Positions 1 through 12,622 of a stretch of 12,622 bases of DNA are shown one piece after another. The notes below the pieces were generated by a model that saw only the letters and a program-made list of their open reading frames with translations, did no database searches and was not told the origin of the DNA. Position 1 is the first letter of the stretch. Every line of letters begins with the position of its first letter. Made by a program: the position numbers and the translations under genes. Origin of the DNA: Thermoproteota archaeon (GTDB lineage Archaea > Korarchaeota > Korarchaeia > Korarchaeales > Korarchaeaceae); assembly GCA_027491435.1 (NCBI GenBank), contig JAOZFG010000011.1, positions 1 through 12,622 on the forward strand, given 5' to 3'.

Positions 1-634
1 GGATGAGCCGGCTTAGCTGTTAAAAGCGGGGTTGGCGTTGTGAAGGGACAGCGGTGCTTCGCTGTAAGGTTTACTGGGGTGGCGCTGGACCCCTAATCGC
101 TAATCTGGCTGAGAAGCGATGGCAGGAGCTGGGGCGATGCCAGGGCTTCTAAGAGGTCAAGGGGCTCAGCGGTCTCAAGGATGGGGCGTACATGCGTTGC
201 AGCATCCTTACTAAACACGCTAAGAGGGACGAGAGGAGCTACGTTAGTCTAGAGACCAAAACAGGCTTAGGTTTCGACGTCTATTCAGCGAGCGTTACCT
301 GCTAACAGCTAGGAAGGCCAGTTCTGTCTTCCAACATCATCAGCTACATGACCCTCAAGAGCCAGTACCTTGTATCAGCCTGACGACGAAAGTGCTCACG
401 CTGGCGTTAAAGCGTGGAGGTGGCCTTAAGTTGACGGCACCTTTGGGTCATCGGAAGGAACTGCTCTTAGTGCAGAAGAGCTTGTAGCAAAAACTTGGCC
501 TAAAGGGCCTTCATTAAAGCTCCTTACCGCGTTGATCCCTATCAAGCTGACCGGGAGATAACCTTCGAAGTGTCAGGCCCGGCAGGCTCAGGCTAAACTC
601 CTCTTCAGATATCTCAAGCCTGAGTAAGGGTAGC

Positions 635-1294
635 TTAATCACTCTCCTCATTTAAATCACCCGGGAGCTTTCTAGAGAGGCTTTTCACCCTAACCAACTG
701 GCCAACGTCGGCCTTATCATGTACCTTAGCCTGATTCACGAAGTATACTTCGTCCACGTAGGCGTCCCTATCCACGACAACCTCAAAGGCCTCGACCCTC
801 TCCACCTCAGCCCCCCTACCGACCTTAACGAGTTCCCCTATCACTACCTCCGCCTCAGAATCCCTGCCTAAGCTCACAGCCCTGCCAACTACAATCCCCC
901 TTACCTTGGACTTCTTGCCTAATACAACCCTTTCAGCTATCATCTCCTCGAAGGAGGCCCCTCCGGACACCCTAACCTCCTTGGCCTCGACCCTCCTGGC
1001 CTTCAAAGAGCCGGAAATCTCTATTAACTCAGCCTTAACCTCATCTTCAACTGAGAGGCTGCCGGAGATGTAAAGCTCCCCTGCCTCAAGGGAGCCCACC
1101 TTCATGCTACCGGCCACCTTAAGTTCCCTTACCTTAAGGCCGCCCTCAACCTTCCCGGAGCCGCTTAAGTGGAACTCCTCCCCCTCAGCGTTCCCCTCTA
1201 CCTTCATTGAGCCGGCCACCTTCACCCTTCCGAACTTCACCGGACCCTTCAGCTTAACTGATCCGCCCACCGAGAGTTCCTCTATCTCCTGCAT
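635..1294 (-). CDS. Bactofilin-like (polymer-forming cytoskeletal, YhbE/YhbF/DUF583-like) beta-helical repeat protein, 219 aa
   Basis: Val/Gly-rich repeats of ~16-17 aa with a [VIL]x[VIL]xGSxx[VA]xG pattern (KVAGSMKV occurs twice; HLSGSGKV, YISGSLSV, EISGSLKA). These are followed by C-terminal VxLGxxSxV-type repeats. No TM segment or signal peptide. A TATA-like element lies ~23 nt upstream of the ATG. Confidence 0.75.
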   Translation of the reverse strand: MQEIEELSVGGSVKLKGPVKFGRVKVAGSMKVEGNAEGEEFHLSGSGKVEGGLKVRELKVAGSMKVGSLEAGELYISGSLSVEDEVKAELIEISGSLKARRVEAKEVRVSGGASFEEMIAERVVLGKKSKVRGIVVGRAVSLGRDSEAEVVIGELVKVGRGAEVERVEAFEVVVDRDAYVDEVYFVNQAKVHDKADVGQLVRVKSLSRKLPGDLNEESD

Positions 1295-1315
1295 CGGGCG
1301 TTAGGGAGCCATCAG

Positions 1316-1344
1316 CTTATATTGCGAACTCACAAATTGTGAGT
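1316..1344. promoter_or_regulatory. Shared TATA-like element (CTTATATT, 1316-1323) and perfect 8-1-8 inverted repeat ACTCACAA-A-TTGTGAGT (1328-1344); candidate operator
   Basis: Read directly from the 44-bp gap between divergent genes. The palindrome overlaps the GTG start of the wHTH gene. Confidence 0.6.
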
Positions 1345-1596
1345 GTGAGAAGGTGCAAGCACGACGTGGTTAGGGACATGCTCAGGGCCTTGACAGAAGG
1401 GGAGAAGAGGGCAACGAACCTGTGCAGAGAAGCTAACGTTCCAATGGACAGGGGAAAGCCCCTCCTCAACTACCTCGTTGAGAGAGGGCTTGTCGTGGCC
1501 TTAGAGGGAGAGAAGGGGGTAGAGTATAGGATAACCTTTCTAGGGTACGAGTGGCTTGGGCTCTACGAGAGGCTGGAGGAGCTCCTCCCCCTCTAA
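1339..1596 (+). CDS. Small archaeal winged-helix DNA-binding protein (HTH_45-like), 85 aa; start may be GTG 1345
   Basis: Pattern RR-x-K-H-D-VV-x-D-ML-x-AL...T-N-L...AN...L-x-Y-L-x-x-x-GL-V...Y-R-I-T-x-x-G fits small archaeal wHTH regulators. A T5 tract (1598-1602) follows the stop. Confidence 0.8.
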   Translation: MSVRRCKHDVVRDMLRALTEGEKRATNLCREANVPMDRGKPLLNYLVERGLVVALEGEKGVEYRITFLGYEWLGLYERLEELLPL

Positions 1597-1782
1597 CTTT
1601 TTACATTTATGGGCGCGACCCCCTACAGTGCAGGCTAGGCGATTATCAGGAAAATCGAGGTTTTGCTCCTTAACCTACTACTTTACTAAACCCCTACAGT
1701 ATGGTTTTGAGTCACCACCCAGCGTAGTACAAGAGAGGGGTTAAAGGTAGCTTTGTCACCGCTCCTGAACCTTAAAAGCACG

Positions 1783-3786
1783 TTACCTCAGCATCTTGGC
1801 GTTAACGGCTACCACCACTGTGCTTATGGACATGAGTATGGCGCCTGCAGCCGGGCTCAACAACAGCGGATAGAAGGCCCCCGCAGCTAAAGGTATTGAT
1901 ATTGCGTTATACCAGGTGGCCCAGAGTAGGTTCTGGACCATCTTCCTGTAAGTCTTCCTAGACAGCTCTATCAGCCCAACAACATCCCTCGGATCGTTCT
2001 TTACCAATATCACGTCAGCGCTCTCGATCGCCACGTCCGTGCCAGCTCCTATGGCTACTCCGACGTCAGCCTCCACAAGGGCTGGAGCGTCGTTCACCCC
2101 GTCGCCTACCATGATCACGGAGCCCACCTCGGACCTGAGCTCCCTGACCTTGAGGGCCTTCTCGTGAGGGAGGACCTCTGCGAAGTACCCATCTAGCTCC
2201 AGGGATTCGGCCACCCACCTGGCCACTTTGGAGTTGTCCCCGGTGAGCATGTAAACCTTTAAGCCCATCTCCTTGAGTGCCCTCACAGCTCCTTTAGACT
2301 CCTCTCTTATCACGTCTGCCAGTGCTATGGCGCCGGCCAACTTGCCATCCACCACAACGAAGACAACCGTCTTACCCTGATCCATCGCCTCCTGAACCTC
2401 CCTCCCCCAAGATAGGCCCATCTCCTCCACTAGTTGTGGGCTCACCACCATTACGTGCTTCCCCTTGACGTAACCCTCGACCCCCTTCCCTGGAATCGCT
2501 CTAAAGCCCTCTACCTCCTGCCCGCCTCCTAGGGAAGCTATGGCCCTCGCTATAGGATGCTCCGACCTGGACTCCAGGGAGGCAGCGAGCTCAATGAGCC
2601 CATCTCTATCTAGAGTTAGGGGGATCACGTCAGTCACCTGAAACCTCCCCTCGGTTAACGTACCAGTCTTATCGAATATCACAGCCCTGGCCTCTCTAGC
2701 TCTCTCAAACGGATTCCTATTCCTTATCAAGATGCCTTTCTTAGCCGAGAGTGAGGTGGAAACAGCCACTACCAAGGGAATCGCCAGGCCTAGAGCGTGG
2801 GGGCATGTAGTGACCATCACGGTGACAGCCCTCTCAAGGGCGAAGGCGGGCGCTTTCAAGGCAGTCCAAACCAAGAAGGTGACTGCGCTAACCCCCAAAG
2901 ATATTATGGTCAACACCAGAGCCGCCCTATCTGCCAGATCCTGGGTTCTGGACTTGGACTCTTGAGCCCTCCTGACTAGCTCCAGGACCTGCATCAGGTA
3001 GCTCTCCTTCCCCGCCTTCCTGACCTCCACCTCTATGGAGCCCTCAAGGTTTACGGACCCGCCTATCACCTGATCTCCCGGCCCCTTGTATACGGGATTG
3101 GATTCGCCAGTTAGCATGGACTCATCGACGCTGGTCTCGCCCGACCTCACGACCCCATCCACTGGTATCGTCTCGAAGGGCTTTACCAGTATCAGATCTC
3201 CCCTCTTAAGGCTCTCAACCGGGACGTCCCTCAGTCCCTCTCCGGTTATGAGGTGGGCCTCCTTGGGCACCAGCTTGGCCAACTCCTCCAAAGCCTTGGA
3301 AGCTCCCATCACAGATCTCATCTCCAGGTAGTGGCCCAGCAACATGACGTCTATCAGCGTGGCCAGTTCCCAGTAGAAGGTCTTACCTCCCCAGAGCAGC
3401 GTGGAGGCGCTGTAAAAGAACGCCACAGTTATGGCTATTCCCACCAGGGTCATCATGCCTGGCCTTTTCCCCTTGAGCTCCTCAACCATCCCCTTCAGGA
3501 AGGGCTTGCCCCCGTAAAGGTAGATGAAAAGGGAGAGGAGCATTAACGCTAGATCGCTTCCTGGAAACCTTAGCCTAAAGTTAAGGGCCTGTTGAACTGC
3601 AGGCGAGAGGATCAGCACGGGAATCGTGGCTAAAGAGGACAGGATGAACCTCCTCTTGAATTCAAGCACGTGCCCATGTCCAACGTGGTCTGAGCGCTTG
3701 TGGCCGTGCTCATCATGATGCCCTCCCCCACCGTGCCCGCTCTCACGGTGAACGTGCCCACCAGAGCCGTGATCATGTTCCATCAT
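1783..3786 (-). CDS. copB: Copper-translocating P1B-3-type ATPase (CopB) with His-rich N-terminus; likely start ATG 3786 or 3783 (ORF track extends to TTG 3801)
   Basis: CPH TM motif ([12 protein letters not shown]), DKTGT phosphorylation site, [22 protein letters not shown] in TM7 and MSIS in TM8. The first ~40 aa hold 12 His and there is no CxxC metal-binding domain. Confidence 0.93.
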
Positions 3787-3815
3787 ATGAATCAATAACA
3801 ATAGTTAGGTAAACC

Positions 3816-4694
3816 TTATAATCCTTCCTTCGTCCCCTGGTTGGCGAGCCTCTTATCCAAGTAAAGGGTTAAGGCCAGGTAAGCTAGGGCCGGGGGGGCC
3901 ATGTACATCTTGTCATCTGCTACGGCGACGAAGAAGGAGACGAGCACCATTCCCAAGAGGAGCCTCCTACCCACCAGCCAGGGATCAACGTCCTCCAACG
4001 AGTTGTAAAGCGTGGTGAAAAAGGGCACAGACACGAGCACGTGCACCAAGGGGTGAACCCTTTCAGCCAAAGCGAAGAAGGCGAATATTATGAGGGCCGG
4101 CGGGTACAGGTAGGCAAGGGTTAGCGGGAAGGACGGACCTGGCAACCTCTTCCCCCTCAGCTTAAGGTAGATCAGCACCAGAAGGCCCATCAAAAGGAGG
4201 GAGAAGATCCTGTGAGCTAGAGATGGTTTGTAAACTTCCTCGGAGAGGTTGAAGAGGAGCACCATGAGGGCAACTGGAATGAGGTAGGACTGCCTAACCT
4301 TAGAGAGGAACCTCCCCTCATAAATCGAGTCGAATATCATTATGGGCAGGAGGACGCTGAACACCGCGTGAAATATTGTTAAGTAGAAGAGCCAAGGCCA
4401 ATTAACTCCTAGAAACCTGCCATAGGACGAGAAAGTGTCCAGCTTATCGCTGTAAAAGGTGTTTACCGCCATCCCCTCTATCAGCACCCCCTCAAGCAGG
4501 CCCAGGAGCAAGACTGACCTGTAACCCTCTCCCCTGCTCATCACGAACTCCCTTATCAGGACGGCTGGAATTCCGTAGACTATGAGGAGGCCTGCCAGGG
4601 TGAAGGGGTTGAGGAGGTTCCAGAAGGGAGTGCTCCCCGTCAGGAGCTCCGGTATAGTTGCCGAGAGAAACATCAGCAGGAGGAGCCTTTTCAT
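3816..4694 (-). CDS. Uncharacterised polytopic membrane protein, 292 aa
   Basis: About 8-9 hydrophobic segments with polar motifs ELLTGSTP, YG...LIRE, EGxxxEG, GVNWxW and FHAVFS. Codon usage matches the neighbours. It ends 29 nt upstream of the probable copB ATG (3786). Confidence 0.8.
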   Translation of the reverse strand: MKRLLLLMFLSATIPELLTGSTPFWNLLNPFTLAGLLIVYGIPAVLIREFVMSRGEGYRSVLLLGLLEGVLIEGMAVNTFYSDKLDTFSSYGRFLGVNWPWLFYLTIFHAVFSVLLPIMIFDSIYEGRFLSKVRQSYLIPVALMVLLFNLSEEVYKPSLAHRIFSLLLMGLLVLIYLKLRGKRLPGPSFPLTLAYLYPPALIIFAFFALAERVHPLVHVLVSVPFFTTLYNSLEDVDPWLVGRRLLLGMVLVSFFVAVADDKMYMAPPALAYLALTLYLDKRLANQGTKEGL

Positions 4695-4750
4695 AAGTTA
4701 AGAGGGGGCTCGCCGCTTAAAACGGGAACCCCTGCTGGGTAACACAAACC

Positions 4751-4771
4751 TTTTATATCCCTGTATTACAG
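4751..4771 (+). promoter_or_regulatory. vapBC promoter: TATA box TTTTATAT (4751-4758) followed by palindrome CTGTA-T-TACAG (4761-4771), candidate autorepression operator
   Basis: The TATA box ends 21 nt before ATG 4780, a leaderless geometry. The palindrome sits between TATA and start, where TA autorepressors typically bind. Confidence 0.65.
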
Positions 4772-4779
4772 TAAGGGCG

Positions 4780-5001
4780 ATGGGCGCGAGCTCAGTCATC
4801 ACTGTTAGGGTGCCCAAGGAGTTGAAGGAAAAGATGAAGAGGCTCAAGGTTAACTGGAGTGAGGAAATAAGGAACTACCTGGAGAGGAGGGTCCAGGAGT
4901 ACGAATTCCTGGAGGTTTTAGAGGAGGTTAGGGGGAGAGCTCGCAGGAGGAAGGTGGCGACAGACTCTGTGACCATCATCAGGAGGGACAGGGAGAGGTG
5001 A
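4780..5001 (+). CDS. vapB: VapB-type antitoxin with ribbon-helix-helix (CopG-like) N-terminus, 73 aa
   Basis: VITVRVPKELKEKM...VNWSEEIR RHH signature and a C-terminal IRRDRE motif. Overlaps the PIN gene by 4 nt (GTGA). Confidence 0.85.
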   Translation: MGASSVITVRVPKELKEKMKRLKVNWSEEIRNYLERRVQEYEFLEVLEEVRGRARRRKVATDSVTIIRRDRER

Positions 5002-5411
5002 AGGTGCTGGACGCCTCCTTCCTGGTGAAGTTAGTGCTGGAGGAGGAGAGGTCTGAGGAGGCGGAGCGCCTAATAAAGGAGTGGATCCTAGAAGGGGAGG
5101 AGGTAGCTACTCTGGACCTGGCCTTCCCCGAGTCATTCAACGCCCTGTGTAAAAGGGCCGTGAAGGGGGAACTGAGCCAAGAGGAATGTAGGGAAGCGGC
5201 TGAGGACCTTTACAAGATTTTAAGCAGGATCAGGGTGTATCAGTCGAGGGAATTTATTTTGAAGGCCGTGGACATCTCACTAGAACATGGGATAACGGTC
5301 TACGATTCCTTGTACCTATCCCTGGCCGCCGATAGGGGAGGGGACCTGGCTACTTTCGATGAGGAGCTGGGCAGGGTGGCAGCCAAGCTGGGAGTGACAA
5401 CCCGCCCCTAA
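4998..5411 (+). CDS. vapC: VapC PIN-domain ribonuclease toxin, 137 aa
   Basis: N-terminal VLDAS, a central Glu (PESFNAL), ITVYDSLYLSLA and LATFD together give the PIN acidic catalytic set. Translationally coupled to vapB. Confidence 0.92.
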   Translation: MKVLDASFLVKLVLEEERSEEAERLIKEWILEGEEVATLDLAFPESFNALCKRAVKGELSQEECREAAEDLYKILSRIRVYQSREFILKAVDISLEHGITVYDSLYLSLAADRGGDLATFDEELGRVAAKLGVTTRP

Positions 5412-5571
5412 ATCAGCCGCAGAGGGGTGGTCACTCATTGGGTTAACGCCTACCCAATTAATCATAGGGGAAGCTGTTTGGAACCACGGGTTTTCATTAT
5501 CACCTAATTATCCAAAAAGCTGTAAAAATTTAAAGAAGTTTCATCCATCTAAAAGTTAAGAAGAGCAAGCT

Positions 5572-5583
5572 AAAAAGAAAAAA
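5572..5583 (-). terminator. U-rich archaeal terminator downstream of the MMPL gene
   Basis: The minus strand reads TTTTTTCTTTTT, starting 2 nt after the MMPL TGA stop. Confidence 0.6.
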
Positions 5584-5585
5584 GG

Positions 5586-8336
5586 TCAGTTCCAGCCCAC
5601 CGCCTTTATCAGGCTGGGCAGGAATAGGGGCCTTACCACGAAAGTGTCGACCAGCACAGCTGTCGCGAAGGCGAAGCCAATCTCTTGAAGCATCACGAAA
5701 TTTGATAGCATCAAGGAGCCGAAGGCCGCCGCCATTATGAGTCCGCAGGCCGTTATCACAATGCCCGTCGTCTCCACAGATTTTACTATTGCTTCGTCTA
5801 CTTTCATCCCATTGAAGAGCTCTTCCTTTATCCTCGTCACTAAAAAGATTCCATAATCCATTCCCAAGCCCAGCAGAGTTGTGAGGAGCATTATAGGAGT
5901 TAGCCAGTATATCTCTTTGCCCATGACAAACTGGAAGACCACCACAAGGGCCGCTAGAGACCAGAGTATGCTGGTCCCTATGGCGAGCAACAAGGAGGCG
6001 GCCACCTTAAACGACTTGAGTAGCAGGTACAGCACCAAGAATATCAGCACTAAGGCCACGGGGATTATGCGGTAGGCGAAGTTCTTGTTGACCTGATCGC
6101 TCATCTCGTAAGTTGAGACGGGCTCCCCTCCCACGTAAACCTTCGAATATTTTGTTGCCTCAATGGCCTTCTTAGCTACCTTTAAGGCCTCGTCTGAGTA
6201 GGGGGTTGAGTTTACCTGTACTAAAGCTAGGGCGTACCTGCCCCCCTCGCCCAGGAGGTAGTCCGTCACGTTAACCCTATCCCTGGGCACTAACTCATCC
6301 CCGTTAGTCACGAGGCTGATCACCCGCACGCCAGCTCCTTTAATTTCACTGATTACACGGCTCATGGCCTCATAGGCCTCCTCATCAATTCCCCTCGATG
6401 AGTTTACCGGCCTGTCGAACTCGAAGATCAGGTATATGGTAGAGCCTCCCAGGTTGAATTTCTCCTTAGCCAGCTGGAACCCCTTTATGGATTCGGTCTC
6501 CGGCATCAGCTGTGTGTAATCGTAGGTCCTCTTCATGTTCAAGAGGACTGCACTAGCAACCAGCGTCAGTATTAGGAAGGCCAATACTACTGCTTTAGGC
6601 CTCTTGATCGACAGGTTGGCCATCTTCCTGAGGTAAGAGGATCTTCCTCCGCCTAGGGACCTCCAAGAGGGCCAGAACGTCTTCCTTCCCAGTAAAGCCA
6701 GTAGCGATGGGGTAAGGGTTAAGGCTGAGGATATAGCCAGGAAGACCACCGTAGCAAGGCTGTAGCCCATGCTTTGGAGCATCTTAAAGTCGGAAGAGGC
6801 TAAGGCGCCGAAGCCCACCATGACCGTGAGGGCCGCGCTAACTACGGCCTCACCCGCAAACCTCACGGCCTTCTTCACCGCCTCCCTTTCATCTCCCCCC
6901 TCTAGCTCTTCCTTGAACCTGTAGAGCATGTATATGGAGTAATCTACGCCCACCCCCATGAGCAGAGGGACCACTAAATTCCTCACCACGTAAACCAGAT
7001 CCACTACGTAGGACTCCAAGTAGAGGGCCGCAAACGAAGTTACTATGGCCGTCGCCACCGTGACTAGGGGAATTGCTGGCGCCACTATCGAGGCGAGGAG
7101 AGCGGCCAGTAGAACAATTACTAGGATTAACGTTACCAAATCTATCCTGCTTACGTCCTTAAGGCTAACTCCCTTCATGTCGGCTATGAAGGCCGGCGGA
7201 CCCGTGACGTAGTGCTCGTAACTGAACCATTTGTCAGCCAGCGACCTTACCTCCCTAACTAAGGCCTCACCCCTCCCTTCAACGCTTATGGTGATTAGGA
7301 TGGTCTCGTTGTCCTGACTTATCAAGTTCTTCCTGAGCTCAGCCGGGATTGAGTCCGGGAACTTCAACGGGTGTTTCTTCAAAGCCTCCCCAATGTACTT
7401 CAAAGCCAGCTGGTTGGCCACCTCTCTTAAGTCGTCATCTCGAGCGTTGGGGCCTAAGCGATACAAGGCCTCCAAGAAATCCCTGGACACGTTGCCCTTG
7501 GACGTCAAGGCCTCGAACGCGAGCTTCTTAATCACATCAGGATCTCTGAAGTTGTTTAGGGTAACTCCCTCCACGTTAAATCCCTTTTTTGAGGCTATAT
7601 CCTCGATTATCTTTTCCATAAGCTCCTCAGGGTTAAGCTTACCGGACTTCATAGCTGCTAGGACGTCTCCAACCCTGTGCATTCCCAGTTCGAATAAGGA
7701 AGAGTCCCAAGTTTTGTATACGCCCTTCATGTACCCCTCAGCCTCAGGAGGCAGGAGTAACGAATTAAAGGCCCTCTCATCAACCTCCTTCAAGGGGGTC
7801 TCCGGGGGGCTCTTCAGCAGGAGCTCGTTCCACGCTTTGAGGTAGTAGGCTGGCATCCCGTAAATCAGCTGTAAGGACATGTTAACTTCCTTGTAGGCCC
7901 TCCACAAAGCTGGGTAGAGCACCTTTGTTGCGTTATAGATTTTCTCCTCCACCTCTTCCTTAGTCCGATTCATTACATCCCAGTACCTCTTCCTCACTTC
8001 GTCGTAGACAGTATAGGGAGTTACAACCCCCTTAACGTCCTCTAACTTCCTGACTTCCCTCTCAAACCCCCTGACTTCACTTTCAAGCTTTGAGTCCAGC
8101 CTGACGTTATCGAGCACCACTATCAAATCAGGAGGGTTAAACCCGCTGAACTCATCGTGTAAGAGCTTGGAGGCCTTTACGCTCCTCATTTTATCTGATA
8201 GAAAGGCTCTCTCGTTGTAGATCAGCCTGCCCTCAAGCTTACTCATTAGAGGAAGGCTGATCACCAGTAGCAGAATCCAGGCTGTCAGCGCCAGCTTGTA
8301 CCTCTTGGGCAGGGCTTCTGAGAGGCGGTCCAGCAT
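5586..8336 (-). CDS. MMPL-family (RND superfamily) transporter, ~916 aa; likely start ATG 8336 (ORF track starts at GTG 8345)
   Basis: Two RND halves with GVGVDYSIYMLYRFKEEL and GLGMDYGIFLVTRIKEEL motifs, ~12 TM segments and a large helical extracytoplasmic insertion after TM1. A GGTGAT Shine-Dalgarno (8341-8346, minus) lies 4 nt upstream of ATG 8336. Confidence 0.92.
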   Translation of the reverse strand: MLDRLSEALPKRYKLALTAWILLLVISLPLMSKLEGRLIYNERAFLSDKMRSVKASKLLHDEFSGFNPPDLIVVLDNVRLDSKLESEVRGFEREVRKLEDVKGVVTPYTVYDEVRKRYWDVMNRTKEEVEEKIYNATKVLYPALWRAYKEVNMSLQLIYGMPAYYLKAWNELLLKSPPETPLKEVDERAFNSLLLPPEAEGYMKGVYKTWDSSLFELGMHRVGDVLAAMKSGKLNPEELMEKIIEDIASKKGFNVEGVTLNNFRDPDVIKKLAFEALTSKGNVSRDFLEALYRLGPNARDDDLREVANQLALKYIGEALKKHPLKFPDSIPAELRKNLISQDNETILITISVEGRGEALVREVRSLADKWFSYEHYVTGPPAFIADMKGVSLKDVSRIDLVTLILVIVLLAALLASIVAPAIPLVTVATAIVTSFAALYLESYVVDLVYVVRNLVVPLLMGVGVDYSIYMLYRFKEELEGGDEREAVKKAVRFAGEAVVSAALTVMVGFGALASSDFKMLQSMGYSLATVVFLAISSALTLTPSLLALLGRKTFWPSWRSLGGGRSSYLRKMANLSIKRPKAVVLAFLILTLVASAVLLNMKRTYDYTQLMPETESIKGFQLAKEKFNLGGSTIYLIFEFDRPVNSSRGIDEEAYEAMSRVISEIKGAGVRVISLVTNGDELVPRDRVNVTDYLLGEGGRYALALVQVNSTPYSDEALKVAKKAIEATKYSKVYVGGEPVSTYEMSDQVNKNFAYRIIPVALVLIFLVLYLLLKSFKVAASLLLAIGTSILWSLAALVVVFQFVMGKEIYWLTPIMLLTTLLGLGMDYGIFLVTRIKEELFNGMKVDEAIVKSVETTGIVITACGLIMAAAFGSLMLSNFVMLQEIGFAFATAVLVDTFVVRPLFLPSLIKAVGWN

Positions 8337-8346
8337 AAGTATCACC

Positions 8347-8440
8347 TAGATATATCTAATCCATATATATGGATTAGATATGTTGAAGTTAGATGTATCG
8401 ATAAACTATTTAAATTTTCCTGTAATGGTCGATATATCGT
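8347..8440. promoter_or_regulatory. Divergent MMPL/PadR control region with repeated GATATATC-type palindromes, including a perfect 30-bp palindrome (8352-8381)
   Basis: TAGATATATCTA (8347-8358), CCATATATATGG (8361-8372), TAGATATGTTGA (8375-8386), TAGATGTATCGA (8390-8401) and TCGATATATCGT (8429-8440). TATA-like TTTAAA at 8409-8414. Confidence 0.75.
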
Positions 8441-8446
8441 GATCGT

Positions 8447-8911
8447 ATGAAGAGGAGCAGGATCAGCGGGTGGCTGAAGATCTCAATCTTGGCGATGCTA
8501 GTTAAGGGGCCAATGCACGGCTACGCGATGATAAGAGAAGTGGAGAGAATCACCGGCGGGGAATGGGTACCGGCCCCAGGCTCTTTATATCCAACGCTAA
8601 ACGAGCTCGTGAGAGAAGGCATGGTGGAGGCTAGGGAAGAGAGGATAGGGGGTAGGAGGAGGATCGTCTACTCAATAACGGACGAGGGGATTAAGTTCCT
8701 GGTCGAGAAGGCGGACAAGTTGATTTCTAGAGCCATTCCCTCGATATTCAAGTTCATAGAGAGTCAAATAATAGCCATAAACAGGTCTGGTAACCTGGAG
8801 GAGCTCAACAAGGTTGTGGAGGTGTTGGACTTCATGGTTAATAGGGCAGAAGAGCTAAAGAAGAAGATAGAGACCAACTCTCATGCAGAGCTAATAGACG
8901 CCAATTCCTGA
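8447..8911 (+). CDS. PadR-family transcriptional regulator, 154 aa
   Basis: G-x-LK-x-x-IL-x-ML...PMHGYAMI...PGSLYPTL...G...RRRIVYSITDEG is the PadR signature. Divergent from the MMPL transporter. Confidence 0.93.
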   Translation: MKRSRISGWLKISILAMLVKGPMHGYAMIREVERITGGEWVPAPGSLYPTLNELVREGMVEAREERIGGRRRIVYSITDEGIKFLVEKADKLISRAIPSIFKFIESQIIAINRSGNLEELNKVVEVLDFMVNRAEELKKKIETNSHAELIDANS

Positions 8912-9159
8912 TGAATCTTACAATTTTATCCTGATTCTAAGGTTATCTTCTTGGTTAAAGCAGTTAATTCTCAGATTCTATACTCCGTAGACCTCTGTGG
9001 TCTATTTATATTTAACTCTTTTATCTGAAAGATTTTTAGGATCTATGTTATGTCTAACAGAGCACCTGGACATTTTCTATATATTCTAACTCTAGAAACT
9101 TCCCTCATGCAGTTAGATATACGTGTTCCGCGGGAAGGGTTTTAAGCTTATGCTAGCCC

Positions 9160-9477
9160 TTGAAGAGAATGTTCCCTATAGTAGTTGAGTCCGAAACTTC
9201 GTGGCTGGAATCCCTGATAAAGTTCGTTCAGGAGCTCAGAAGGGAGTTTAAGGGTAGGTTGAAGAAGGTGATAGCCCTCCCCAGCCCTGAGATGAGGGTC
9301 TACGACTCAAACGTGCTTGTGGTCTTGGACAGGTACGACCTCAAGGACGTAGACCTGGTGGTAGAGCTGGCCCTTAAGGTGGACGAGAGGATAAACCCCC
9401 TGGTCTCCAGCGAAGAGGAAGGGGACGTTAAGGCTTTCCTGGGAGAGGGTGGAGTGGAAGTTGAGGGCTGTGGATAA
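9160..9477 (+). CDS. Minimal nucleotidyltransferase (MNT)-like protein with degenerate catalytic motif; probable antitoxin of the downstream HEPN (start may be ATG 9169)
   Basis: Size ~100 aa and MNT-like layout (helix, KKVIAL strand, loop, NVLVVLD strand, helix, INPLV strand, C-terminal EGGVEV). It overlaps a HEPN gene. The canonical GS...DxD appears as PS...DSN. Confidence 0.6.
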   Translation: MKRMFPIVVESETSWLESLIKFVQELRREFKGRLKKVIALPSPEMRVYDSNVLVVLDRYDLKDVDLVVELALKVDERINPLVSSEEEGDVKAFLGEGGVEVEGCG

Positions 9478-9829
9478 GCTAACCAAGTCGGAAGTCTTGC
9501 TCAAGGAGGCTTGGGCGGACCTAGAGGGCGGTTGTTACAACAAGGCGGTATCAGCCTCTTACTTCGCCGTAAGGCTCCTGGTGGAACATTATATACCGAT
9601 AAACACTTCTAAGGATGATAAGATAGCGAACGCTTTAAAGAGAAGGCTCGAGAGATCTGTAGGAAGTAGGGCTGAGGATTTCAGGAGGAGGTACCTCAAG
9701 CTGTTTCAGAGGAGGAAGATTGCAGACCACAAGCCCCTCCTCTTCTCAAGGGAGGAGGCTGAAGGGATAGTCAGAGAGGCCGCCGATCTGATAGGGGAGC
9801 TGAAGCGCCTGCTGGAGGGTAGTGAGTAG
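9449..9829 (+). CDS. HEPN-domain protein (MNT-associated type), ~120 aa; start may be TTG 9461
   Basis: LKEAxxDLExGxYNKAVSASYFAV N-terminal HEPN helix motif, R-x4-H (RKIADH, 9713-9730) and a SREEAE C-terminal helix. Confidence 0.85.
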   Translation: MEWKLRAVDKLTKSEVLLKEAWADLEGGCYNKAVSASYFAVRLLVEHYIPINTSKDDKIANALKRRLERSVGSRAEDFRRRYLKLFQRRKIADHKPLLFSREEAEGIVREAADLIGELKRLLEGSE

Positions 9830-9887
9830 CTGAGCGTTTGGAGTTCATCCTAGAAAACAAATAAGTAGTTTAAGTTATTTAGGCTAG

Positions 9888-11890
9888 ATGAGGGTAATCA
9901 ACCTTATATTTACAATAGTTATAGCGCTGATCCCGCTGGCGTTAGCCCTGAGGATGGCGGATCCAGCCTACCTGCCCCTTGCATACATGGTTCTAGCGGA
10001 CATGGTCATATCTGGCTTCTTGATGTTCATGTTTCAAGGTAGATACGTGAAAATGGCCCGAAAATATGAGGAAGAGTTCATGCCCAAAAATCCTCAGGGC
10101 CCTCAGGAAGGTGGAGCCTCGCAAAAGCGCTAAGGTTGCTCTCCTCATACCTGTGTACAATGAGCCACCGGACCTAGTCATCGAGACTGCCTGCGCAGCT
10201 AAACAGGCTGTATCAGGATATGGCGACGTTTTCGTCCTGGATGACTCCACCAAGGGGGAGATAAAGGAGGGCATAGACAGGGGCGCCAAGACTGTAGGGT
10301 ATAAGGTCTTCAGGAGGGGTTCCAGGAGAGGCTACAAGGCTGGCGCCTTAAACGACTGGCTCAAAAGGTGCGGCGACGACTACGATTACGTGATGATCCT
10401 GGACGCCGATCAGAGGCCCATTCCCACTGTTCTAGATCACGTCCTCCCGTTTTTCACCGACGATAAAGTGGCTTACGTTCAGGTCCCACAGTACTACTCT
10501 GACCTGAAGACCAGGGTGAGCTTAGCAGCTTACATACAGCAGATACCATTCCTAAGGGTGGTGATGAGGGCTAGACATTACACGGGAAGCGCTTTCAGCC
10601 TGGGAAGCGGAACCATATTCAGGGTGAAGGCCCTTAAGGAGATAGGCGGTTTCTACGAGTGGACGGTTACTGAGGACGTGCACACCTCACTTTTGCTGAA
10701 CGAAAGGGGGTTACGTTGGAGTATACTTGGACGCTCCCCTGGTATGGCACGGGGTTCCGCCCAAGGATGTGGGTTCGTACTGGATACAGCAAGGCAGGTG
10801 GTCCCTAGGTGGCTTCCAGCTGATCCCAGCCTTGATGAAGTCAAGGGTGGAGTTAAGGCAGTTCTTAGATTACCTGGCCGGCGCACTTTACTGGCTTCAC
10901 GTAGGCCCCCTCCTAATAGCTGACGTTATAGCTCCCGCCCTAGTCCTGCTCTTCGACCTCTACTACCTGAGGATGGACCCATTGGCCTACCTGCTAGTTT
11001 ACGTGCCCGCCTTTTCCCTGGGCATAACATACTACATGAAGGCCATGAGGAGGTACAACTACAGGCCATCAGAGTTCTTCATTCACCACGCCGCTCACGT
11101 TCTGGTGTCAATTCCTGTGACCCTCTCGTTCATCTCCGCCCTGTTGAGGAGGAGGGTTCCCTTCAGGACTACTCCTAAATCAGGGAGTAGGAGCAACCTA
11201 GTTTACTCCATTCCTTTCATCCTAATGGCACTGGCCTTATCAGTGGGGATTATAAGGGGGGTTCTCCTCCTTGCTAGCGGCCTCCCCGCCGCCAAGATGT
11301 GGGCAGTCGTCGTGAACGCTTTCTGGGCGGCTTGGTGGTTAACCTTCACCCTACCCGTCTTCTGGATAATCCAGCCCAAGGAGGTTCCTAGGGAGGTTAG
11401 GAGCAGGATAAAACAGAACTACGATTTCCTGGTGCACGTGTTAGCGATAATACTTAGGTGCGCCTCCTCCTTGGAGGATGCTGTGGGCAAATATTACCTT
11501 AGATTGAGCAGAAAGTTTGGTAAGTACTTTGAGAGGCTTGGAGAGGACTCCTTAAGGCATAGGGACGTCTACAAGCTCATTTCCGCCAGGGTATTCGTGG
11601 GAGACGTTGGGATTAACGTGGATGAAGCCCTGGTATGCAGGTCCTACTTCGAGCTGATGGAGAAGGTCAGCAGGATGTACGCTAGGTGTCAGGAGAACCC
11701 CTGCCTCTGTCTAATGCCTGAAGAGGAGATACACATGAGGTTGGTCGCCAACATGTCCGTGGAAATGCTGGAAACCCTAGTCGGCGAGGAGTCCTTGGAC
11801 AAGCTCAGGAAAATAGCTTCGGATGAGGTGGTTCACGAGAGGATTATAGAGGGGTGTGAACAGAGCTACCCCTTCTTTAAACCCAGGTAG
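9888..11890 (+). pseudogene. BcsA/cellulose-synthase-like processive GT2 glycosyltransferase with C-terminal ferritin-like domain. As read it is split into three ORFs (9888-10133, 10066-10923, 10727-11890) by two +1 homopolymer insertions; the reconstructed protein is 666 aa.
   Basis: Two N-terminal TMs, then IPVYNEP, LDDS, YKAGALN, DAD (10402-10410), QVPQ, TED (10669-10677), QQGRW (10787-10801), further TMs and FRTTPK (11162-11179). Removing one A from A5 (10086-10090) and one G from G5 (10706-10710) gives a single open frame. The gene may be intact in vivo if these are sequencing errors. Confidence 0.88.
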
Positions 11891-12162
11891 AGGCCCAAGG
11901 CGAAGGAGCTGGTCGGCATCAGGCTGCTCACCAAGAAGTGGATCAGGGCCTCGCCCCTCTCAAACCCCTCCCTGCTCAGGTTCAGCAGAGCTGATGAGAA
12001 CTTCCCCCAGTGAACTGTCACCAGGCCTTTCCAGTCCAGGTATAGGAGGAGAAGCGTGAAGAGGCCTGCCACAGTCAAGGCAACCTTGATGAACTTCTTT
12101 ACAGTGTAGCCTATCAGCAGCCCCAATATGAAGGGAACGCCCGCCTCCTTCACCAGGTCCAT
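11866..12162 (-). CDS. FUN14-family small membrane protein, 98 aa
   Basis: GxxFILGLLIGYTVKK...AG...LxYLxxxGLVTVxW...SSFALGLYLGLKKG matches the FUN14 pattern. A minus-strand TATA-like TTTTTAA at 12186-12192 lies ~24 nt upstream of the ATG. Confidence 0.85.
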   Translation of the reverse strand: MDLVKEAGVPFILGLLIGYTVKKFIKVALTVAGLFTLLLLYLDWKGLVTVHWGKFSSALLNLSREGFERGEALIHFLVSSLMPTSSFALGLYLGLKKG

Positions 12163-12472
12163 CGTCGTCTAGGCGGGACCCCTAGTTAAAAAGTTCACGC
12201 CCTAAACGATGGCCTCGGAGAGTACAGGGGTGAATTGGGGGTCATCTGGAAGGGCTAAGCTTATTTTGACGCTTTTCAGGCGATTATCAACTCGATTGAT
12301 AGTTAATCGAACTTCACTCTGGGCGTTGTCTGTGTGAGGGCTCCCTATTCACAGGCAGCGACGCTTCCAACCACTTAGGCAGTCCCCAGAAGGGCACTAC
12401 ACCCCAACTTTTAGAAAGTGATGCGAATGTTCCATAACTTTATTTTTGGTTTTCAGTGATTACAAGGGGAAC

Positions 12473-12622
12473 ATGGCTCAGCTTAAGGAGGAACTCCTGG
12501 AGTTACTTGAGAAGGATAAGGAGTTCAGGCATGCCGTAGCTGGGCTCATAGGTTACAAGGAGATCTTGGAGCGAATAGTTTCGCTGGAGGAAGGGCAGCA
12601 GGAGCTGAAGGAGGGGCAGCAG
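12473..12622 (+). CDS. 5' part of an archaeal coiled-coil heptad-repeat protein (paREP/DUF3782-like; such proteins often end in a PD-(D/E)XK nuclease domain), truncated by the window edge
   Basis: Not in the ORF track. Translates as MAQLKEELLELLEKDKEFRHAVAGLIGYKEILERIVSLEEGQQELKEGQQ, and the LLxxDxEFRxAVAGLxG N-terminus is typical of this archaeal family. TATA-like TTTATTT at 12439-12445. Confidence 0.75.
   Translation, partial: MAQLKEELLELLEKDKEFRHAVAGLIGYKEILERIVSLEEGQQELKEGQQ
12584..12622 (+). repeat. Start of a 21-nt coding tandem repeat (LEEGQQE / LKEGQQ...)
   Basis: CTGGAGGAAGGGCAGCAGGAG followed by CTGAAGGAGGGGCAGCAG, running off the window end. Confidence 0.6.

Follow-up and report, generated by a model that had tools for sequence, protein, structure and literature searches.

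What might control a processive glycan synthase in an archaeon? The regulation of such enzymes is understood mainly through cyclic di-GMP (c-di-GMP) and PilZ domains in bacteria, and to our knowledge archaea do without the c-di-GMP messenger. The question is raised by contig JAOZFG010000011.1 of a Thermoproteota archaeon from the Korarchaeaceae (assembly GCA_027491435.1), of which we analysed positions 1 to 12,622, hereafter called the window. One gene, at 9888-11890 on the forward strand, encodes a BcsA-like glycosyltransferase family 2 (GT2) protein that ends in an additional helical domain, referred to below as the tail. We suggest that this gene very probably represents a conserved archaeal family in which the last membrane helix of a BcsA-like synthase runs straight into a cytoplasmic bundle of the rubrerythrin type. 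We also propose, with the arguments for and against in near balance, that the fused bundle is a regulatory metal site on the archaeal synthase. The tail is best read in this way because it appears to have been acquired once, because it keeps a nearly complete set of ligand positions, and because a ligand-bearing helix is predicted to lie at the loop past the DxD motif of the catalytic domain.

The gene is spread over three successive frames, as seen both in the list of open reading frames (ORFs) and in a three-frame translation. With its nearest intact relative, P0009 (668 amino acids, also the source of residue numbering below), as a tblastn query, three collinear pieces were obtained on the forward strand in frames +3, +1 and +2. 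These cover 9888-10088 (P0009 residues 1-67), 10051-10716 (residues 55-275, 65% identity) and 10709-11848 (residues 273-662, 48% identity). The first piece of the synthase (9888..10088, in the frame of 9888) holds the start codon and the N-terminal membrane helices, and is followed by a run of five A residues (10086..10090) with one surplus base relative to intact relatives. The second piece (10089..10708, in the frame of 10051) encodes the GT-A catalytic domain, identified by tblastn, by Pfam GT2 families and by a partial NCBIfam match, and a surplus base in a run of five G residues (10706..10710) makes the second frame break; both breaks were located by three-frame translation and alignment. 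The third piece, in the frame of 10700, encodes the QQGRW motif, membrane helices, the FRTTPK motif and the last two membrane helices at 10709..11389, as placed by the model of P0009. It then continues into the tail (11390..11890, 166 amino acids plus stop), which was delimited by model, profiles and conservation and closes with the TAG stop codon at 11888-11890. Dropping one base in each run gives the same reading as in intact relatives, and the 666 amino acids reconstructed in the initial annotation hold good: the 2000 nucleotides from 9888 to 11887, minus two surplus bases, leave 1998. Intact copies from the same genus have 668 and 665 amino acids. We set the start of the tail at 11390, directly past the last membrane helix, for a domain that had earlier been given as 11420-11890.

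The synthase part of the protein has all the motifs attributed to it in the initial annotation, each in the place given there. On the forward strand these are VYNEPP (10153-10170) and QVPQYY (10480-10497) in the catalytic domain, the D motif LDDST (10237-10251), the DxD motif DADQRP (10402-10419), TED (10669-10677), the QxxRW motif QQGRW (10787-10801) and the gating-loop-type motif FRTTPK (11162-11179). The D, DxD, TED and QxxRW columns are at least 90% conserved among 91 aligned sequences. FRTTPK has T for the V of FxVTxK, as does P0009, and most relatives read FxVTPK; the pattern F.[VTI]T[PS]K was found in 24 of the 25 relatives of at least 640 amino acids, P0031 being the one miss, and also in the N-truncated long form P0047. 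In hmmsearch, a profile built from 39 family members matched E. coli BcsA (7lby) with an E-value of 7.6e-47 and Rhodobacter BcsA (4hg6) with an E-value of 4.3e-41, and a full-length AlphaFold2 (AF2) model of P0009, built from 91 sequences, has a predicted local distance difference test score (pLDDT) of 94.8 and a predicted template modelling score (pTM) of 0.93. BcsA chains are the best Foldseek matches of that model (E 1.4e-21, template modelling (TM) score 0.56-0.57), with plant CesA and hyaluronan synthases next, so the earlier description of the enzyme as BcsA-like is upheld by sequence profile and structural comparison alike. Pfam places GT2 families on the middle piece; the NCBIfam CelA model (TIGR03030) scores 76.8 bits on the catalytic piece only, against a cut-off of 699.1, and the synthase is therefore not a CelA equivalog. 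Judged by these matches, it is a processive BcsA-like GT2 glycan synthase.

Like bacterial BcsA, the archaeal enzyme combines a GT2 domain bearing D, DxD, TED and QxxRW with an FxVTxK-type loop, a membrane channel and an extra cytoplasmic domain joined past the last membrane helix. It differs in having no PilZ domain or PilZ motifs, and its model has only two membrane helices ahead of the catalytic domain. The alignment with E. coli BcsA stops at BcsA residue 698, directly past the last membrane helix, which we take to be the start of the PilZ domain in BcsA. The P0009 model places two membrane helices (436-465 and 469-496) between the FRTTPK loop and the tail, so that the tail is predicted to lie on the cytoplasmic side, together with the catalytic domain. 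Passages on cellulose synthases in one paper describe archaeal homologues as shorter than BcsA, and those passages make no mention of a tail of this kind (PMC10086821). Our search of the full-text literature found no paper on a ferritin-like or rubrerythrin domain fused to a GT2 synthase. Judging from sequence records, in which both Pfam domains can be seen, the architecture is already present in public protein entries and appears to be undescribed as far as the literature was searched.

The position occupied by PilZ in BcsA is thus taken here by something else, and the rest of the bacterial system is missing as well. PilZ (Pfam PF07238) has no match in the tail at E <= 1 and none in the 99.46%-complete genome, in which GGDEF and BcsB (PF03170) likewise have no match. 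The initial annotation had reported no PilZ motif pair in the tail and no bcsB, bcsZ or bcsC in the window. We likewise find a single trivial RxxxR (RMYAR) and no [DN]xSxxG in the tail, no bcsB/Z/C-like gene among the window ORFs, and no BcsB genome-wide. The bacterial c-di-GMP switch is therefore unavailable here. A bacterial precedent is BgsA, the mixed-linkage beta-glucan synthase of Sinorhizobium meliloti, whose C-terminal domain is reported to bind c-di-GMP; like the archaeal protein, it is a BcsA-like GT2 enzyme whose C-terminal regulatory domain is no predictable PilZ (PMC5567048). The archaeal tail differs in being a ferritin-like bundle found in genomes without c-di-GMP enzymes.

What, then, is the tail? 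The window's own tail has no Pfam match at E <= 1 and no NCBIfam match, and its identity is established through relatives. Five of nine fused relatives exceed the gathering score of the Pfam Rubrerythrin family (PF02915, 22.8 bits), with one below threshold and three without a match. P0024 reaches 30.4 bits (residues 519-648, profile positions 3-136 of 137), and a separately called 192-amino-acid ORF of the fused locus L018 reaches 33.4 bits. The window tail is linked to that ORF by BLASTP (E 8e-13, 28% over 151 residues), as is a four-sequence Korarchaeum profile by hhalign (probability 99.6%, E 1.6e-23). Moreover, a domain-only profile of 12 sequences matches Thermotoga maritima TM1526 (1vjx) with an E-value of 1.3e-6 over 145 of 166 positions (14-158). 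A PF02915 scan of the whole genome at E <= 1 found five other places and not the window tail. Taken together, these matches indicate that the tail is homologous to rubrerythrin/ferritin-like diiron-carboxylate proteins, and the original call of a ferritin-like domain right after the last membrane helix was correct.

Structural comparison is in keeping with this assignment. The AF2 model of the window tail (pLDDT 90.5, pTM 0.85) has long helices at residues 2-43, 45-68, 84-99, 110-126 and 133-159. Its Foldseek matches are weak and all ferritin-like (best E 0.07, TM 0.56-0.61). In the VIA exhaustive search the top ten matches have Z values of 13.8-12.1 and are all described as ferritin-like or hypothetical bundles; 1vjx has a Z of 12.7, with a root mean square deviation of 2.9 A over 130 residues. 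Every one of the 50 rows listed is a four-helix bundle, and the titles of about 41 of them name members of the ferritin superfamily (Dps, ferritin, bacterioferritin, Mn catalase, aldehyde-deformylating oxygenase, R2 and symerythrin). Because helical bundles reach such Z values easily, the domain assignment rests on the sequence evidence. The best named ESM Atlas clusters, some of them Rubrerythrin, score 0.88, under the 0.9 threshold, and serve as a lead only.

The closest known proteins, those of the TM1526 or COG1633 type, are also helical bundles of about 150 residues, with a Glu on helix 1 and a Tyr seven residues on, a His on helix 2, a Glu on helix 3 and an ExxH on helix 4. The archaeal domain departs from them in being fused to a membrane synthase, in having an EE pair on helix 3, and in replacing the Glu of the first ExxH by Ser in all members, with D or E before the Ser. 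The C-terminal rubredoxin-like CxxC...CxxC domain of rubrerythrin proper is absent from the tail, which has no CxxC pair, and the protein ends 17 residues past the last tail His. Six Cys residues had been counted in the tail and are indeed there (24, 83, 100, 105, 107 and 156 of 166 residues, including CQENPCLC). Cys 24, 83, 100 and 107 (11459, 11636, 11687 and 11708) are invariant among the four Korarchaeum copies, and Cys24, five residues ahead of the helix-1 Glu, and Cys83 are kept in most, not all, fused relatives. The conserved Cys might pair as a disulfide or make up a further site for metal or redox chemistry.

In the 26 long forms the sole invariant tail columns are Y513, E531, S560, H563, E621, E622, E655 and H658 of P0009, and Y538, E634 and I651 are at least 90% conserved. 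The window counterparts of the conserved columns are E29, S54, H57, E112, E113, E146 and H149, plus Y36 and E125. Helix by helix, the pattern is E(x6)Y (helix 1), (D/E)SxxH (helix 2), EE (helix 3) and (D/E)ExxH (helix 4). The candidate ligands are E29 in LEDAVGKYY (11474), D53-S54-x-x-H57 in EDSLRH (11543-11560), E112/E113 in EEEIH (11720-11734) and D145-E146-x-x-H149 in DEVVH (11822-11836), all on the forward strand; E125, in VEML (11759-11770), is a predicted interface residue. Because the invariant columns of 26 fused tails fall at the positions of the motifs first picked out from a single sequence, those motifs are not due to chance. The ligand set proposed in the initial annotation stands as regards these invariant E and H residues and fails as regards the His of EEEIH, which is common only to the window copy and P0009 among the aligned sequences, most relatives having I, L, V, M, Y or T.

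Five of the six positions of an E/ExxH/E/ExxH site are therefore invariant (E531, H563, E621/E622, E655 and H658), and the sixth is S560. The first ExxH had been described as degenerate, and it is so throughout the family: Ser stands in place of Glu in all 26 long forms, aligned in the domain profile with the Glu of the first ExxH of TM1526. In the ferritin-like fold there are two bridging carboxylates, and this Glu supplies one of them. Its loss could be made good by the acid ahead of the Ser or by the second Glu in the EE pair.

When P0009 residues 1-498 and 499-668 were folded as two chains, alongside three controls, the complex score was 0.81 (runs of 0.79, 0.81 and 0.82), against 0.00 for the best of the controls. 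Of solved complexes, 116 of 157 reach 0.81, and of mismatched pairs, 2 of 215; because the alignments were our own, these counts apply only approximately. At least 88% of contacts are common to the runs, and the partner has a pLDDT of at least 81. On the tail, the predicted interface consists of the first helix (502-523, with Y513), a short helix (588-595), helix 3 (619-635, including E622 and E634) and the C-terminus (659-668). On the catalytic domain it consists of helices 97-109 and 130-136, residues 175-182 and 203-218, strand 281-286 and residues 388-397. Residues 175-182 lie directly past the DAD motif (171-173), strand 281-286 lies upstream of QxxRW, and 388-397 is the start of the helix ahead of the gating loop; helix 3 is predicted to pack against R175 and P178, past DxD, and against W285 and Y286. 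The prediction supports, short of demonstrating it, a specific interface between the tail and the catalytic domain beside the DxD loop.

The fusion is widespread and old. The Korarchaeum tail profile, searched against 1.84 billion representatives, found 20 proteins at E <= 0.001, including fused forms of 663-690 amino acids. A search with P0009 gave 88 clusters at E <= 1e-20, and the tail is covered in 26 of them; the remaining clusters hold proteins of about 500 amino acids, ending 75-110 residues past FxVTPK. The long forms are named as coming from Sulfolobales, Aciduliprofundum sp. MAR08-339, Bathyarchaeia, Vulcanisaeta sp. JCM 14467 and Candidatus Korarchaeum, and Aciduliprofundum boonei T469 has a 650-amino-acid member. 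In species-representative genomes the long form was present at 16 of the 23 loci found, which add Desulfurococcales, Thermoplasmata, metagenome-assembled genomes (MAGs) of Thermoplasmataceae, and Vulcanisaeta sp. JCM 16159. A maximum-likelihood tree was built from 84 cores without the tail, 4 of the 88 rows having been dropped as shorter than 470 amino acids. In it, all 26 long forms make one clade, with a Shimodaira-Hasegawa-like approximate likelihood ratio (SH-aLRT) support of 97, a single change of state, and an Archaeoglobus-type short clade as sister. On this tree, the bundle was evidently acquired once and then kept. The possibility, raised at the outset, that the fusion was a single read-through is answered by these cluster and locus counts, by the single clade and by the invariant residues. 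The tails of the clade are about 17-28% identical to the window tail, apart from the two closest relatives at 41% and 84%. The family occurs in named strains, A. boonei T469 and Vulcanisaeta spp., which we take to be cultured isolates, so its study need not rely on metagenome sequence alone.

In a split-gene test, weak domain matches were found in 7 other genomes of the phylum, in ORFs of 163-414 amino acids, with no Rosetta-stone support; the neighbours of the four ORFs examined (163-175 amino acids) were an aminotransferase, a GNAT protein, an aldehyde dehydrogenase and V4R proteins, with no GT2 among them. P0007, on a 534-nucleotide contig, was treated as a fragment and not as a stand-alone domain, as were P0004, P0005, P0008, P0010 and P0012, which begin inside or just past the membrane region. 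No conserved operon was seen among the 92 neighbouring ORFs of 10 other loci.

We suggest the following scheme. The bundle would provide a site for one metal ion or two, with iron the likeliest metal, and the occupancy or oxidation state of that site would shift the packing of the bundle on the catalytic domain. The changed packing would alter helix 3, and hence substrate binding or catalysis, so that polymerisation could be tuned by a direct metal or redox input in organisms without a c-di-GMP/PilZ system. In the erythrin-VIT1/MbfA iron exporters and the hemerythrin-regulated diguanylate cyclases, bundles are coupled to a membrane protein or a biofilm pathway, and a di-iron helical bundle serves as the metal or redox input, much as we envisage here. 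In the hemerythrin cyclases, however, the bacterial redox signal reaches the synthase indirectly, via c-di-GMP, whereas the archaeal bundle sits on the synthase itself. The parts of the proposal are not equally secure. From the conserved residues, binding of metal by the bundle seems somewhat favoured, and regulation by metal or redox state, as far as sequence can tell, is a tentative suggestion about which we have more doubt than belief. A more specific form of it, in which a di-iron centre senses peroxide, oxygen or iron directly and switches archaeal exopolysaccharide synthesis on or off, through an oxidation-dependent rearrangement of ligands on helix 3 passed to the loop past DxD, is rather unlikely.

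Several observations weigh against a regulatory metal site. Because the bridging carboxylate is Ser in every member, the site may, as far as the aligned sequences tell, be mononuclear, non-canonical or non-metal. The window domain is missed by the Pfam Rubrerythrin model even at E <= 1, it has no Foldseek match in the PDB at E <= 0.001, and helical bundles reach a VIA Z of about 13 through their common arrangement alone. The two chains of the complex prediction come from a single polypeptide, whose two halves would lie close together regardless. The initial annotation had expected a ferritin-like bundle near the gating loop: the bundle was modelled with confidence, whereas the gating loop (418-435 of P0009) is not among the listed interface residues, an absence that the tool does not treat as evidence of no contact. 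About 58 close relatives have no tail of this kind, and the tail is therefore dispensable for the basic reaction. Finally, the gene is found in only 4 of the 21 genomes of the window's genus, its own included (the other three copies are 35-38% identical over the piece compared), and it is frame-broken both in the window genome and in genome G015; such a sparse presence and the frame breaks would fit a dispensable accessory gene.

The last of these points leads to the strongest alternative, that the gene is dead in this genome, an accessory gene on its way out of the genus and disabled here by frameshifts; we give this a little less than an even chance. Two independent single-base insertions in homopolymers lie within 620 nucleotides, no uninterrupted frame is found here, and the source annotation on the contig holds only a 305-amino-acid fragment (P0119), all as expected of a dead gene and in line with the broken G015 copy and the patchy presence in the genus. 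However, homopolymers are the site of the commonest sequencing error, and the frames past the two breaks stay open for 290 and 396 codons from stop to stop, with every motif intact. The fused synthase is also found in two or three frame pieces in four draft assemblies (L018, L030, L037 and L038). For the broken L030 copy, from Vulcanisaeta sp. JCM 14467, an intact protein of 686 amino acids is recorded under the same strain name (P0038) and matches the two pieces at 100% and 99.5% identity; breaks of this kind can therefore be assembly artefacts. Similarly, the broken L018 copy has an intact counterpart from another assembly, P0024, at 99.6-99.8% identity. Breaks in the fused synthase gene thus seem often to arise at the level of assembly. 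Across the whole genome, 525 pairs of same-strand overlapping open frames were counted, too noisy a measure to judge assembly quality. We consider it roughly a toss-up whether the window copy is a very recent pseudogene or mis-assembled, and given its two frame breaks the synthase protein may not be made here, a point that the initial annotation had left out of account.

The G015 homologue (L003, on contig C2 of that genome) lies between ORFs at 2952-3470 and 1474-2988, both on the reverse strand, and is broken once, between HYDF and LMILDAD. The G015 copy reads HYDF and then a stop, at a point where the near-identical intact P0002 reads HYDFLMILDADQ, which is consistent with the loss of one base between TTTC and TGATG. 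Programmed frameshifting or transcriptional slippage at the five-base A and G runs of the window copy was considered and rejected, since the intact copies L002, L004 and P0009 require no shift there; runs of five are also short for transcriptional slippage.

A second alternative grants that the family is real and denies it any sensing. The tail would then be a structural module that braces a thermophile's catalytic domain or mediates oligomerisation, and the acidic and His residues would form a structural metal site or be a relic. The large and confidently predicted interface and the high pTM of the full-length model fit a rigid brace, and the invariant Y513 and nearly invariant E634 lie at that interface and not at ligand positions. 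The loss of one canonical ligand in every member could be read in the same way. It is hard to see, though, why five ligand positions should be invariant in tails of such low overall identity if nothing is bound there, and short-tailed sisters whose lineages are just as thermophilic (Archaeoglobus, Sulfolobus) have no brace at all. For these reasons we regard a purely structural role as unlikely, and a regulatory metal site remains our preferred reading of the tail.

That the tail is an active di-iron enzyme carried by the synthase, such as a peroxidase of the rubrerythrin type or an oxidase, which would protect the synthase or modify a substrate with no allosteric switch, is in our view a slim possibility. 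Most of the named hosts belong to lineages of anaerobes, in which rubrerythrins detoxify peroxide, and the homology of the tail is to rubrerythrin-family and diiron-carboxylate proteins, with aldehyde-deformylating oxygenases and Mn catalases among its structural and sequence neighbours. Yet the tail lacks the rubredoxin-type CxxC...CxxC domain for electron entry and has Ser in place of a bridging Glu, no conserved redox partner adjoins the gene, and the genome has separate rubrerythrin-family genes of its own. That the tail is a one-off read-through or a chance helical sequence without relatives, an idea that draws on the lack of any direct Pfam or NCBIfam match for it, is refuted by its conservation in a single clade, with invariant residues, across 26 clusters and 16 loci, and is given practically no credence.

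The other genes of the window are of several kinds. On the reverse strand are a 219-amino-acid ORF with a borderline bactofilin match (635-1294; 27.7 against 27.9 bits), a P-type (E1-E2) ATPase of 672 amino acids (1783-3801) and an MMPL-family transporter of 919 amino acids (5586-8345), with a PadR regulator divergent from the transporter gene on the forward strand (8447-8911). A PIN-domain protein (4998-5411, forward) is preceded by an overlapping 73-amino-acid ORF, and a 126-amino-acid ORF with a weak, sub-threshold HEPN match (9449-9829, forward; 17.8 against 22 bits) is paired with a 105-amino-acid ORF without a family. The two small overlapping gene pairs, at 4780-5411 and 9160-9829 on the forward strand, look like toxin-antitoxin modules. 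Downstream, a FUN14-family membrane protein of 98 amino acids (11866-12162, reverse; PF04930, E 1.7e-15) is encoded by a gene whose 3' end overlaps the last 25 bases of the synthase gene, stop codon included.

Some of these gene types are seen near fused synthases elsewhere. In L022 and L038, the synthase likewise has PIN genes nearby. In the Bathyarchaeia loci L027 and L037, which are close kin and so not independent cases, the genes upstream of the fused synthase include PadR, DUF362/4Fe-4S and VTT/DedA genes, and an ABC-2 transporter lies downstream. A NosD/right-handed beta-helix protein lies about 1.2 kb or less from the fused synthase at a Bathyarchaeia locus (980 amino acids; L026, 8178-11117, forward) and at a Desulfurococcales locus (678 amino acids; L031, 1760-3793, reverse), and such neighbours may be secreted partners that bind or cleave the polysaccharide. 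A sugar-nucleotide cluster is found about 1.2 kb from the fused synthase of a Crenarchaeota MAG (L022, 8222-11987), with an NAD-dependent epimerase/dehydratase, a nucleotidyl transferase, a UDP-glucose/GDP-mannose dehydrogenase and a Polysacc_synt flippase-type protein.

A conserved, once-acquired bundle of a metal-binding type, predicted to pack on the catalytic domain, provides a concrete hypothesis for how an archaeal synthase could be controlled. If the proposed regulation is correct, it would be the first non-nucleotide allosteric input to this class of enzymes, and an archaeal substitute for the c-di-GMP/PilZ switch.

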